A DNA stretch of 59,051 bases from an uncultured Planctomycetaceae bacterium (GCA_903951635.1 CAJBCV010000125.1:1-59051), one strand, 5' to 3'; counted from the stretch's first letter, positions 824 through 18,938 are shown. Numbers and translations are program-made. The notes: generated by a model not told the origin, from the sequence alone.

Positions 824-2158
824 TCACCACCGCCCCTCGAGGCCGAGCGACACGCCCTGCACCACCGTGCTCCCGGCGGTGTTGAGCGACCCGCGGACCG
901 GCGAAGCCGAGCCACCCGAGCTGAGCGTCTGGCCGCGGAGTTGGTTGGTCGGCTGGGCGAGGCCTTGGAGCCAGAGACCGAGGTAGCCGACGCGAAGCGA
1001 AAGATTGCAGGTGATCGGGAGGGTGCCAGTCAGCCCCACCTCACCGACAAAGGCCGCGGCGCCTCCGGCGGCCCGGACGTTGGCTGTCTGCACCTCGCCG
1101 GGGGCGAGTTCGTAGGTGTAGGCCGAGTTCTGCACCGCGTTGTTGTAGTAGGCCCCGCCCTTGAGAAGGCCGTCGACCCGGAAGCCCTGGCCGCGGTCCC
1201 AGAGGCGGATGTCGGTGCCGATCTGATAGCCGTAGAGGCTGTTGTAGGTCTGGTTGCCGAAGATGTCCTGGCCGTAGATCGGCTGCGGGTCGGTGGGATC
1301 GAACTGGTAATGGTCGGCAAGGGTGAGGTTTTCCCCCCAGCCGAGCATCCGGAAGCCCTGCATGAGGGCGATGTTCGGCCGGACTCGCGCCCAGCGGTTG
1401 AACTCGAAGCTCCAGATCGACGCGCTCAGGTCAGCGGTGGCGGTGTCGACCGGCGTGAAGGCGTTGCCGTAGATGCCCGGCGGCGTAATCCCGTAGCCGT
1501 TGATCGACGGCAGCGTCGCCTCCTGAGAGCGGAAGTTCGCCGCGTTGAACCAGGTCGTCTCCCAGGCATTCTGGCAGTCGTCGGTGCGGTAGATGGAAAA
1601 CCGTGGACCGGCCGCCGGCGTGCTCTCGAGTTGGCCGGCGCTGAGGGCCGTCGCGCCGTACCCGTTGGGGGTGTCGGCCGTGTAAGAATAGAGCGGGATG
1701 TCGTTGGGGGAATTGCGCCACAGGATCAGGGCGTCGCTGCGGAACGTCCAGGTGGCGCACTTGTTGTCGTGGAGCACTTGGAGCAGGCCGGGCTGCTCGA
1801 ACGGCCCCTGATCGCGGGGATAGCGGCAGGCGTCGGTCACCCAGCCGGTCCAGTCGCCGGAGCCGCCACCCTCGTCGACGACGGCGGCGCTGGAGTCATA
1901 CGGGCCCGATGAGACGACGGCGGAAGACTCCCGCTCGACGACCGGGCCGGAGGAGTTCGACTCGGTCGGAGAAAAACCGAGCCCTTCCGGGGAAGGCGGA
2001 TCGATGAGCTCGACGCCGCTGTCGGCCACGACGGCCCGGCTGCCATCCTCGTCTGCACCCCAGTCTTGGCCGGCGGCGGGCACCACCGTCATCGCTGCGG
2101 TCGCCGCCACCGACATGGCGGCCATCCACCCTCCGATTCGCGCCTGTTTCCGCATCAT
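824..2158 (-). CDS. predicted outer-membrane beta-barrel protein, BBP7-like putative porin family (paralog 1)
   Basis: 444-aa ORF with an ATG-ATG start and GGAGACGGGAAAG upstream. The N-terminus looks like a Sec signal (MMRKQARIGGWMAAMSVAATAAMTVVPAAGQ). An acidic low-complexity stretch of ~100 aa is followed by beta-strand-like sequence. The C-terminus LGLEGRW ends in an aromatic residue, like a beta-signal. It is collinear with 17565..18938. Confidence 0.7.
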   Translation of the reverse strand: MMRKQARIGGWMAAMSVAATAAMTVVPAAGQDWGADEDGSRAVVADSGVELIDPPSPEGLGFSPTESNSSGPVVERESSAVVSSGPYDSSAAVVDEGGGSGDWTGWVTDACRYPRDQGPFEQPGLLQVLHDNKCATWTFRSDALILWRNSPNDIPLYSYTADTPNGYGATALSAGQLESTPAAGPRFSIYRTDDCQNAWETTWFNAANFRSQEATLPSINGYGITPPGIYGNAFTPVDTATADLSASIWSFEFNRWARVRPNIALMQGFRMLGWGENLTLADHYQFDPTDPQPIYGQDIFGNQTYNSLYGYQIGTDIRLWDRGQGFRVDGLLKGGAYYNNAVQNSAYTYELAPGEVQTANVRAAGGAAAFVGEVGLTGTLPITCNLSLRVGYLGLWLQGLAQPTNQLRGQTLSSGGSASPVRGSLNTAGSTVVQGVSLGLEGRW

Positions 2159-2701
2159 CTTTCCCGTCTCCGGTGGAAACTCCGAACTGCGGGATGGAAT
2201 CGGTCATACCGGTCCTGCGGCGGTAGGGTTGTGCCCGCAGTTCCTGTCAGGAAATCTGGGAGGGCTGGGCGCCGGAACCCCCGGCGAAACAGGCTTTCCC
2301 AGGCCGCCCCGTCAGCCCCGTCGTGCGGGGGATGGGGCAGGCCGCGCAAGGCACCACGATGGGAGAGGGTGGGAGAGCCCTTCCCGCATCCTCGGTCGGT
2401 TGGAAAACCGGGCTCGCGCGGCCACTCTGAAACCCCCCAAACCGATTCGTTGCCCCGCCTGCAGCGAGACGCTACCCTGCCGACAAGCTTTTTCTTCAGG
2501 AGGGGGAACAGGCTCTGGACCCGTGCCCGGGCGTGGGTCGAAGAGAGTCTGGGGCATTCGGTGGACCGTGTGTTGATCGGTGGCGACGGCCTAAACCTCC
2601 GTCGGAGATCGACACACTCGCAAGCCGATTCTCCCCCCGTCGGTTCCCCGCCCGGCACCCCAATCTCACGTCATTCGGATCCGTTCCCTGCGAGGCCTTC
2701 C

Positions 2702-17239: not shown

Positions 17240-17564
17240 TCCTGTCTCGAGCGAATGGCTCCCCGGCGGGCATCGGACTTGGGAAAGATTCCCAGGCCGA
17301 TCCCCCGGGGAACCGTCGGCTCATTCCCCCCAGCTTCTCCGGCCGACGATCGGATTTCCCGTCGTCCCGGAGGCCTGGGATGTTTGGGAGGGAATGCGTG
17401 GCTCCGCGAGCGGGCGTCGAGCACGGATCTGCCCGCAGGGCTTGTGTATTCGACCCGAAGCGCCCGGTCGCCGTGACCGGCATTTGAGGATCGAGAGTCA
17501 CGACCAGCATGACCGTCAGTCGAAAAACCTGGGGAACCGATTTCCTTGGGAGGATCACGACGTC

Positions 17565-18938
17565 ATGAACGCTTGGCAGGATCGGGCGGGTTCTCCGCGT
17601 GGCGTGCGGGTTGCCGGTTGTACGGGCCTTGCCCGGACGCTCCGCAACACGACTGGCCTCGGCCTGACGGCCACGGCGCTTCTTTTGTCCGTGGCCGCTC
17701 CGGCTGCCGCGACGGCCGGGGGCTTCGACAGCTTCCTCGATGGCGAGGGGGATCAGGTCGTCGAGCCGGTCGAAACCTCGGTGCTCAACCCGGGGCCGCA
17801 GGAGCCGACGCTCGGCTTCGGCGATGCCTCCGGCGGGTTTGACGGCTACGACTCGGCGGCGACTGTCGATGCCGTCCCCCGGGTCGATGGCGTCTATCCC
17901 GGCGCTGAGCCCGGCGTCATTCCCTATGGTGGCGGGGCTGATGGCGGCTTCAGCACCTGGAGCGGCCCGGTCGACTTCGGCGGTGGGCTCTTGCGGCCTG
18001 TGTCGCCCCGGTGGGTCGTGCAGACCGACGCGCTGTTCCTCTGGCAGGGGAACATCGGCAGTCGTCCGCTCTACCTCAACACGAGGTCGACCACGACCCA
18101 GCCGAATCCCTTCCCCCCCCCCGACACGCTGCCGACGACCGCCCTGGACATCAACCAGACGGCCAACGAGGCGGCGGCCGGGCCAAGGATCGGGGTGCTC
18201 TTCAACCTTGACAACATCTACTCGGTCGAAGGGAACTATTTCAACGTTCGCCCCTTCAACGGCGAACAGTCGACGCCGCACACCGCCGGTGCCTACCAGC
18301 AGAACTTCCTCGCCGGCTTCCGGCCGCCCGACTCCCCCGGCTTCCAGGACATCGACTGGGCGCAGGCGACGACGAACGCCTCGATCATGAGTGCCGAGTT
18401 GAACTGGCGCCGCCGCACGTGCGGGCCGGTCACCTGGCTCGGTGGATTCCGCTGGGTGGAATGGAACCAGGGACTGCAGCTCCTCGACACCTACGGAACG
18501 ACTGCCCCGACGCCGCTGGAGCAGGCGGAGCGGATCACGACGAACACCATCAACGACCTCTACGGTGGTCAGGCCGGTGCTGACGTGATGCTCTGGAACA
18601 ATGGCGGTCCGATCCGATTCAACGCCGTCGGCAAGGCTGGTGTGTTCCTCAACAACGCCGTCCAGCACACGAGCGGCTACTCGGAGGGGGATCTCGGTCC
18701 TCTCTCCGCCTCCGCCCAGCAGACGGCCTTCTTCGGTGAATTGGGGATCTTCGGCACCTGGCAGATGACCGACTGGCTCGCCTGGCGGACCGGCTACAAC
18801 TTCTTCTGGCTCTCCGGGGTCGCCGTGCCGGTCGATCAGCTCAACACCACCGACGTCCTCAACAACACCGCCACGATCAACACCAACGGCAGTGTGTTCC
18901 TCAACGGCGTCCAGTTCGGCCTCGAGAGCCGCTGGTAG
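17565..18938 (+). CDS. predicted outer-membrane beta-barrel protein, BBP7-like (paralog 2)
   Basis: The track ORF is 17394..18938. I prefer the ATG at 17565, which has GGGAGGA ~10 nt upstream and gives MNAWQDRAG...LGLTATALLLSVAAPAAATA as a signal peptide. The C-terminus is FGLESRW. Conserved blocks are shared with 824..2158: DAL[IF]LW, AAGPR, NNAVQ, GLE[GS]RW. Confidence 0.7.
   Translation: MNAWQDRAGSPRGVRVAGCTGLARTLRNTTGLGLTATALLLSVAAPAAATAGGFDSFLDGEGDQVVEPVETSVLNPGPQEPTLGFGDASGGFDGYDSAATVDAVPRVDGVYPGAEPGVIPYGGGADGGFSTWSGPVDFGGGLLRPVSPRWVVQTDALFLWQGNIGSRPLYLNTRSTTTQPNPFPPPDTLPTTALDINQTANEAAAGPRIGVLFNLDNIYSVEGNYFNVRPFNGEQSTPHTAGAYQQNFLAGFRPPDSPGFQDIDWAQATTNASIMSAELNWRRRTCGPVTWLGGFRWVEWNQGLQLLDTYGTTAPTPLEQAERITTNTINDLYGGQAGADVMLWNNGGPIRFNAVGKAGVFLNNAVQHTSGYSEGDLGPLSASAQQTAFFGELGIFGTWQMTDWLAWRTGYNFFWLSGVAVPVDQLNTTDVLNNTATINTNGSVFLNGVQFGLESRW

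Follow-up and report, generated by a model that had tools for sequence, protein, structure and literature searches.

The stretch of DNA analysed here, 59,051 nucleotides from an uncultured Planctomycetaceae bacterium (GCA_903951635.1 CAJBCV010000125.1:1-59051; referred to as the window), carries near its left end the gene of a giant surface protease-adhesin (giant A, 2702..17239, plus strand, 4,845 residues), which is flanked by genes for two outer-membrane beta-barrel proteins of the BBP7 family (Pfam ID PF07585), barrel1 (824..2158, minus strand, 444 residues) and barrel2 (17565..18938, plus strand, 457 residues). In related loci, barrels of the same subclade recur beside giant genes through repeated rearrangements of the gene order. 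This recurrence probably reflects a subclade-specific barrel-giant module, with the barrel acting as a dock or anchor rather than as a pore of the two-partner secretion (TPS) type. That this specialised BBP7 subclade provides docking or anchoring partners for giant surface proteins is the explanation to which we lean, with a confidence that falls just short of even.

The first-pass annotation of the window had described the two barrels as paralogues bracketing the giant open reading frame (ORF), and their alignment bears this out, with 31% identity over about 410 columns (E=1e-40). The sequence blocks it quoted, DAL[IF]LW, AAGPR, SI.S.E.N, NNAVQ and a C-terminal GLE[GS]RW, are all found in both proteins, and most of them are family-wide; barrel1 ends in GLEGRW and barrel2 in GLESRW. 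In a 105-sequence alignment, R186, E252, N254 and N339 are invariant, and W444 is present in at least 90% of the sequences. The MNAWQDR N-terminus of barrel2 is kept in homologues, which supports ATG 17565 as the right start. Both N-termini have a basic n-region followed by a hydrophobic helix (residues 3-21 in barrel1 and 22-41 in barrel2 of the AlphaFold2 models) and look like signal peptides, in agreement with the Sec-type signal proposed before. The helix is followed by an acidic stretch of about 100 residues, likewise noted in the first-pass annotation, with a net charge of -13 in barrel1 and -12 in barrel2. This N-terminal tail is acidic in 97% of 65 family members, with a median charge of -9.

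The suggested membership in BBP7 was confirmed directly for one barrel and by way of relatives for the other. Barrel2 scores 26.6 bits against PF07585, above the gathering cut-off of 26, whereas barrel1 alone scores 14.5 bits and stays below it. PF07585 is carried by homologues of both barrels, those of barrel1 from 50% identity downwards, one barrel1 homologue is named "BBP7 family outer membrane beta-barrel protein" by NCBI, and both barrels score more than 460 bits against a family hidden Markov model built in this analysis. By homology, both are thus assigned to BBP7. The family comprises 6,782 clusters at 50% identity, and its best 150 representatives are all stand-alone proteins of 150-600 residues. 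No relative turned up when the PDB was searched by sequence with the family profile, and literature searches on BBP7, DUF1551 and PF07585 yielded no functional study, no structure and no genomic partner; with the two barrels, a known family without a characterised function gains new members. With BBP7/DUF1551 (PF07585, "putative beta-barrel porin-7") they share the outer-membrane barrel, the Sec-type signal and the terminal aromatic residue, whereas the coupling to giants is a trait of one subclade and not of the whole family.

A genome scan with the BBP7 alignment yielded 80 loci, nearly all from freshwater Pirellulales-like metagenome-assembled genomes (MAGs), with barrels 37-96% identical to barrel1. 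We counted as a giant neighbour any ORF of at least 1000 residues adjoining the barrel gene, leaving out the double UvrA-like ATPase described below. By this count, 36 of the 57 loci that could be assessed have a giant beside the barrel, as do 44 of the 88 assessable flanks and, with clustering at 65% identity, 15 of the 22 barrel clusters. In a giant-rich planctomycete genome, by comparison, 45 of the 6,645 genes, about 0.7%, exceed 5 kb (PMC5177795). A first count, which placed ORFs of at least 1500 residues beside the barrel in 45 of 56 loci, was inflated, as 20 of these ORFs were double-UvrA genes, and these were removed.

The neighbouring giants belong mainly to two families, homologues of giant A, which are 40-60% identical over the non-FN3 core and stand beside the barrel in most related loci, and Q-type giants, which share the N-terminal domain of a second giant (giant B) whose 5' end is cut by the left edge of the window (1..224, minus strand). 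The barrels divide into a B1-type, like barrel1, and a B2-type, like barrel2. Using the symbols A for the giant A family, Q for Q-type giants, B1 and B2 for the barrel types and U for the double-UvrA gene, the arrangement Q< B1< A> B2> <U is found in the window, L001 and L087; A> B2< B1> Q> in L038 and L050; U> B1> <A in L054, L057, L064 and L069; A> B1> A> in L028; and A> B1> Q> in L065. At least five arrangements of the four gene types are thus represented. The sub-unit that changes least is a B1 gene with a Q-type giant directly downstream on the same strand; it is found in at least 14 loci and is kept while its other neighbour varies in at least six ways. Genomes hold several barrel-giant modules, and on one contig of another genome, where L052 and L069 lie together, a giant A homologue again stands between two barrels. 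Approached from the giant side, a homologue search with the first 500 residues of the giant returned 11 fragments, and the giant-side sampling consists of L087, which has exactly the layout of the window.

The unit is therefore a four-gene set, made up of two giant families and B1-type and B2-type barrels, and not one substrate with two barrels, as the first-pass annotation had it; the bracketing of a giant by two barrels does recur, and barrel1 is placed with giant B. Giant B lies downstream of barrel1 in the same direction at a distance of 599 bp, and we consider it the more likely partner of barrel1 than giant A, judging from the gene arrangements. The corresponding assignment of barrel2 to giant A is weaker. 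Two barrel genes stand side by side in 16 loci. Such adjacent BBP7 pairs are tandem or divergent and commonly combine a B2-type with a B1-type gene (L018, L027, L030, L033, L038, L044, L046 and L049, with further pairs in L050, L055, L058, L060, L062, L068 and L078), and from this pairing two different barrels may act together.

Gene neighbourhoods of this kind can also arise without any dedicated link. The barrels would then be ordinary small channels or structural proteins of the outer membrane, lying near giants through an inherited and locally shuffled ancestral block of extracytoplasmic function (ECF) sigma factor, double-UvrA, barrel and giant genes. We regard this as unlikely, and the following observations weigh for it or against a barrel-giant partnership. 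The double-UvrA gene, which we used as an internal control for synteny by descent, adjoins the barrel on 16 of the 88 assessable flanks, and this adjacency is conserved although a functional link is implausible. Since an unrelated gene is also recurrent, part of the pattern reflects one ancestral block inherited in freshwater Pirellulales-like MAGs, the single group from which most of the loci come. Barrel2 orthologues of 47-50% identity keep their place without a giant, in the order ThuA> BBP7> <UvrA, and the deepest conserved neighbour of barrel2 is the double-UvrA/ECF block. The orientation of the genes varies (divergent, tandem or convergent) with gaps of 300-600 bp, so there is no tight operon, and the conserved leader described below stands before B1-type barrels only and not before giants, so that shared regulation is not established. 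Sampling started from barrels, which biases what is seen. BBP7 is a very large family in which distant genes have unrelated neighbours: three still more remote BBP7 genes, of which two lie on megabase contigs, adjoin neither a giant nor a signal-bearing gene, and at one of the three a signal-bearing giant is found 5.4 kb away and not adjacent. The expectation of the first-pass annotation that giants would be found beside such barrels in other genomes thus holds for related loci and fails for distant BBP7 members, and barrel-giant coupling is a property of a subclade rather than of all BBP7 members.

Set against descent alone, the barrels have diverged to 37-50% identity and the order of the genes around them has changed in at least five ways, but giants still occupy half of the flanks. 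The pair of a B1-type barrel and a Q-type giant moves as a unit, and several paralogous modules are found per genome. Moreover, the fold is narrow and long-stranded and bears little resemblance to general porins, as described below. An independent case outside the clade of the subclade is provided by Tuwongella immobilis, which belongs to a distant order (Gemmatales). There, published proteomics (PMC8567305, Table S3) placed the PF07585 protein GMBLW1_22780 exclusively in the sodium dodecyl sulfate (SDS), that is, outer-membrane, fraction, and its immediate neighbour GMBLW1_22770 is flagged with a cell-surface motif and enriched in the same fraction; the authors appear to pass over this pairing without comment (PMC8567305). 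Going by the table of that paper, the two other checkable PF07585 genes of the three in T. immobilis have no giant or signal-bearing neighbour, which belongs with the observations against a barrel-giant partnership.

Other neighbours are found at the periphery of the family. The most distant barrels of the scan, 37-39% identical to barrel1, adjoin PEP-CTERM proteins instead of giants (L077, 10898-12757; L080, L082, L083 and L076), which carry two sorting motifs (PF07589, 36.4 bits) and represent another class of specially sorted surface protein. Two distant BBP7 genes have in common an upstream gene of 245-280 residues (L091, 8809-9546; L089, 767-1612) that has no Pfam match and contains the pattern ..PVYSVPFNQI.V.NP.YTV..IP.VGSVTVSFGTLF.., and its product may be a different, small partner of another BBP7 subclade.

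The AlphaFold2 models, computed from alignments of 105 sequences for barrel1 and 90 for barrel2, confidently fold both proteins into beta-barrels, as had been predicted. For barrel1 the predicted local distance difference test (pLDDT) is above 90 for residues 135-444, with a predicted TM-score (pTM) of 0.70, and for barrel2 the pLDDT is high for residues 148-457, with a pTM of 0.67. Each barrel has about 12 strands by DSSP, several of them 22-27 residues long. The acidic region in front of the barrel is disordered in the models (residues 22-125 in barrel1 and 42-138 in barrel2). Barrel1 can thus be divided into the acidic tail at about residues 31-135 (window 1754-2068) and the barrel at 136-444 (window 827-1753), and barrel2 into a long signal-like N-terminus, the acidic tail at about 52-148 and the barrel at about 149-457.

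The best Foldseek neighbours of both models are the Legionella Dot/Icm-associated porin I (PDB ID 9nh1), the omptins Pla and OmpT, and OpcA, with target-normalised TM-scores of about 0.45-0.68 (0.46-0.61 for the omptins), whereas general porins of 16-18 strands reach only 0.12-0.17. With the omptins and porin I the barrels share a narrow shape and very long strands that protrude from the membrane. The sequence identity is only 10-14%, however, and the acidic N-terminal tail is an addition of the proteins described here. There is no Pfam match to the omptin family (PF01278), and the conserved columns include no invariant His for an Asp/His active site, so that the barrels do not count as omptins. 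A literature search turned up no paper on the Legionella porin I. Invariant polar or charged residues alternate along the strands (E252/N254, R270, N306/Q312, K333/N339), which suggests that the lumen of the barrel is filled. With about 12 strands and this many invariant polar residues on them, the modelled barrel appears better suited to a dock or anchor holding one polypeptide segment than to a free pore.

The structures also bear on the proposal of the first-pass annotation that the barrels form a two-partner-like translocator. In its strict form, the barrel would be a true translocation pore that threads the unfolded giant, either like TpsB or like an autotransporter barrel working in trans. 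We consider this improbable. The adjacency evidence serves it as well as it serves a dock or anchor, a very large surface protein or exoprotein gene beside a separate barrel gene is a feature shared with TPS (type Vb secretion), and Pfam scans of the window ORFs found no component of the type I, II, V or IX secretion systems (T1SS, T2SS, T5SS, T9SS), as stated before, so no other secretion component is at hand in the window. The conserved N-terminal domains that follow the signal in the two giant families (18 and 13 members) recall the TPS domain and the conserved N-terminal region of TPS substrates, and a glycosyltransferase of family 41 (GT41), encoded between barrel and giant in some loci, recalls HMW1C of HMW1ABC. 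The barrels themselves, by contrast, have no match to POTRA (polypeptide-transport-associated), ShlB or Bac_surface_Ag domains in Pfam at E-values up to 0.1, their pre-barrel region is disordered, and they have about 12 strands instead of the 16 of TpsB/Omp85 proteins. FhaC and TpsB are missing from the top 50 Foldseek matches, and chains of the barrel assembly machinery (BAM) complex, including BamA, are not among the nearest folds, BAM-complex chains matching weakly with TM-scores of 0.30-0.34. A filled lumen, if the alternating charged residues are rightly read, would also disfavour threading. On the substrate side, TpsA proteins have a Sec signal and the TPS domain PF05860, whereas giant A has neither. 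The translocator of the first-pass annotation is thus not supported.

Autotransporters and inverse autotransporters (types Va and Ve), in which a 12-strand barrel holds the passenger linker, are closer in size: the barrels described here share the strand number of about 12, could hold a single segment, and would likewise accompany a repetitive adhesin or protease passenger displayed outside. In autotransporters, however, barrel and passenger are one polypeptide, whereas in the window they are encoded by separate genes, 543 and 325 bp apart. None of the best 150 BBP7 representatives is fused to a long protein, no autotransporter Pfam domain was found, and AIDA-I is a weak Foldseek match. With its separate genes, the system does not qualify as an autotransporter.

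The GT41 genes are an observation in their own right. A glycosyltransferase of this family (PF13844, 31.7 bits) is encoded directly downstream of the barrel in eight loci (L025, 11083-13005; L040, L051, L071, L029, L035, L048 and L063), not in the window, and in L025 and L071 the gene lies between the barrel and a signal-bearing giant.

Giant A has its conserved start at ATG 2702. From this start follow the two gaps given in the first-pass annotation, the divergent region of 543 bp shared with barrel1 (2159..2701) and the 325 bp that separate giant A from barrel2. Pfam matches identify M10-like and M8-like zinc-protease modules (metzincin HExxH), PPC, beta-helix and BNR domains, and a C-terminal region with at least 11 FN3 domains, and the protein ends in an FN3 repeat. 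In Pfam searches giant A has no C-terminal sorting domain, so that it differs from T9SS cargo in this respect, as the window does in having no T9SS genes. Orthologues of giant B are 3,172 residues (L012) and more than 3,254 residues (L001) long.

Both giants begin with an unusual basic presequence. That of giant A (48 residues, 2702..2845, plus strand) consists of MFLSCWLTSVRNLF, an Arg-rich stretch and LEQLEARQVMA, without a hydrophobic core, and the protein starts MFLSCWLTSVRNLFSSRRLRSVRRPVRRWRQSDAQQQLEQLEARQVMA-FDFVSA. Giant B begins with MKFGSIFNRF, a basic stretch and then VESLEDRRLLAFQYVGFTH, its start reading MKFGSIFNRFSRD...RLARRKRMRGQDVVAAVESLEDRRLLA-FQYVGF. The fragment at 224..1 on the minus strand carries ..VESLEDRRLLAFQYVGF, which bears out the earlier remark that a second gene shares the odd N-terminal motif of the giant. 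Among 28 giants of related loci, presequences range from 36 to 67 residues (median 46.5), with a net charge of +5 to +10, and the longest run of residues from the set AVLIFMWGC does not exceed 5, in keeping with the earlier statement that the giant lacks a classical signal peptide. Of 44 large ORFs whose 5' end is visible, 37 have the signal motif. The remaining seven are for the most part spurious or antisense reading frames, and no genuine giant with its 5' end in view lacks the signal.

The motif appears to be of an already known type, the putative planctomycete export signal RRLxxExLExRxLLA (Planc_extracel, Pfam ID PF07595; Studholme 2004, as cited in PMC8567305), to which it is a weak match. 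The PF07595 scores are 12.7 bits for giant A, 18.7 for giant B and 13.5 for a third giant, all below the cut-off of 25.5, and the matches cover profile positions 6-17 at the expected place. Shared with the PF07595 signal are the basic stretch, the LExRxxLA motif at about residues 35-50, the lack of a hydrophobic core and the occurrence on large surface proteins. The differences are the sub-threshold scores and the bipartite form of the signal in this lineage, which has an additional x-[LIF]-F-x-[RK] box at the extreme N-terminus. According to PMC8567305, the signal is found in T. immobilis on eight of the ten longest proteins, which are found in the outer-membrane fraction, and eight of 20 detected motif-bearing proteins occur only in the SDS fraction. 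A 2025 review of the phylum does not mention an export route for giants.

Taken in order, docking could proceed as follows. The barrel would be exported by Sec and inserted by BAM through its C-terminal GLEGRW beta-signal, while the disordered acidic tail of about 100 residues would stay in the periplasm. The giant would reach the periplasm by an unspecified inner-membrane route. There, its basic presequence of 40-50 residues (+5 to +10) might be captured by the acidic tail (-9 to -13), a step suggested by the opposite charges of the two. The amphipathic segment after the presequence (AFDFVSA or AFQYVGF) might then lodge inside the narrow barrel of about 12 strands or on it, and the giant would thereby be docked or anchored at the outer membrane, with the protease and the FN3 array displayed outside.

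A broader version of this scheme would be a two-component surface display system of the planctomycetes' own, in which a dedicated barrel of the BBP7 subclade recognises proteins with a PF07595-type signal in the periplasm through its acidic tail, and the barrel then serves as their anchor or as their way out. Such a system would be split and POTRA-less, distinct from T5SS, T9SS and the type XI secretion system (T11SS), and its barrel-giant pairs would have been co-duplicated. We offer it tentatively and consider it doubtful in this full form. The nearest analogue in logic is Slam/T11SS, a DUF560 barrel encoded beside its surface-lipoprotein substrates, for which paralogous barrel-substrate pairs exist. 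The shared feature would be a dedicated barrel encoded beside the surface proteins that it serves, whereas the barrels described here belong to another family and lack a TPR domain in Pfam searches, and the substrates are not lipoproteins.

In the 543-bp divergent region, strong conservation is confined to the 97 nucleotides proximal to the barrel gene. This non-coding element ends at the barrel1 ATG (2156..2252, minus strand) and has a mean column identity of 95% across 12 sequences, the window and 11 orthologous loci. Some of these loci have barrel proteins that are only about 50% identical, so that the conservation of the element far exceeds that of the coding sequence. Recognisable in it are TGAC-NN-GAAC, GACCG-N4-GACCGAT and a Shine-Dalgarno-like ACGGAG box, and its GGAAC box resembles an ECF -35 site. 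A profile search of the loci found diverged copies in about 27 further loci, each of them immediately in front of a B1-type barrel gene and none in front of a B2-type barrel or a giant (copies in L001-L013, L017, L019-L028, L031-L034, L039, L042-L044, L054-L065, L069, L073 and L087). The element has no family match in Rfam, and a structured RNA was rejected: for 30 diverse copies, RNAalifold predicted three pairs at -0.31 kcal/mol, the window copy has a z-score of -0.6, and a candidate hairpin was no better than shuffled sequences. Apparent compensatory changes among close orthologues are explicable by shared ancestry. The simplest reading is that it combines a conserved promoter or operator with a leader. 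In neither intergenic region, the divergent one or that between giant A and barrel2, did scans find sigma-70-like promoters or terminator-like sites above shuffled controls.

The position of this element before B1-type barrels alone raises the possibility that the barrels are ECF-sigma-controlled outer-membrane proteins for envelope homeostasis or sensing, which report or buffer the load of giants without being their physical partners. The GGAAC box is conserved upstream of the B1-type only, an ECF sigma gene is a conserved neighbour (in L003, L084, L086 and the P0192 locus), and one T. immobilis BBP7 gene adjoins an ECF sigma gene according to PMC8567305. The promoter role of the element is a prediction, however, the ECF-type promoter motif TGACNNGAAC occurs at chance frequency in the window outside the leader, and such a role would leave the acidic tail and the giant-specific adjacency unexplained. 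We consider this alternative very unlikely. The sigma factor is a possible regulator, and a link between it and the 97-nucleotide element is speculation.

In the left 25 kb of the window, the gene order is the giant B 5' end, barrel1, giant A, barrel2, double-UvrA, a tRNA gene and the ECF sigma gene. The double UvrA-like ATPase (18901..25134, minus strand, 2,077 residues) is convergent with barrel2 and is a conserved neighbour that we do not propose as a member of the module. Proteins of this tandem-duplicated type, of about 2,050-2,230 residues, are deeply conserved neighbours of BBP7 genes, together with the ECF sigma factor and an alpha/beta hydrolase, even in genomes that have no giant at this site (L003, L040, L046, L051, L054, L057-L072, L084 and L086), and this adjacency has no obvious functional reason. 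The double-UvrA gene is separated by the tRNA gene (25184-25256, plus strand; Rfam RF00005, 59.1 bits) from the ECF sigma gene (25275..26024, plus strand), a conserved member of the neighbourhood that encodes a factor of the PF07638 type. DUF1501 and ASPIC/UnbV proteins are also encoded in the window, as judged by Pfam, and the whole, at about 68% G+C, has the look of planctomycete DNA. At its right end, the region of about 52400-58300 has a G+C content of 0.65-0.67, compared with about 0.70 elsewhere in the window, and holds a Fic/DUF4172 gene (53353-54741, plus strand) and a DUF6188/DUF6984 gene (54763-55536, minus strand). Given its composition and these genes, the region may be a small acquired island.

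To judge from the searchable literature, the recurrent coupling of BBP7 barrels to signal-bearing giants, seen here in genome sequences, appears to be unreported. Planctomycete genomes each hold dozens of genes for giant surface proteins, and many of the largest of these proteins carry the signal without a known machinery that recognises it. The barrels that travel with the giants are a concrete candidate for the outer-membrane step, and their acidic tail and the basic presequence of the giants form a predicted electrostatic recognition pair. If the partnership is true, it would represent a new kind of barrel-plus-passenger system and would assign a role to some of the thousands of BBP7 proteins, which have none so far; should it be refuted, the locus would stand as a clear example of deep synteny mimicking functional coupling.

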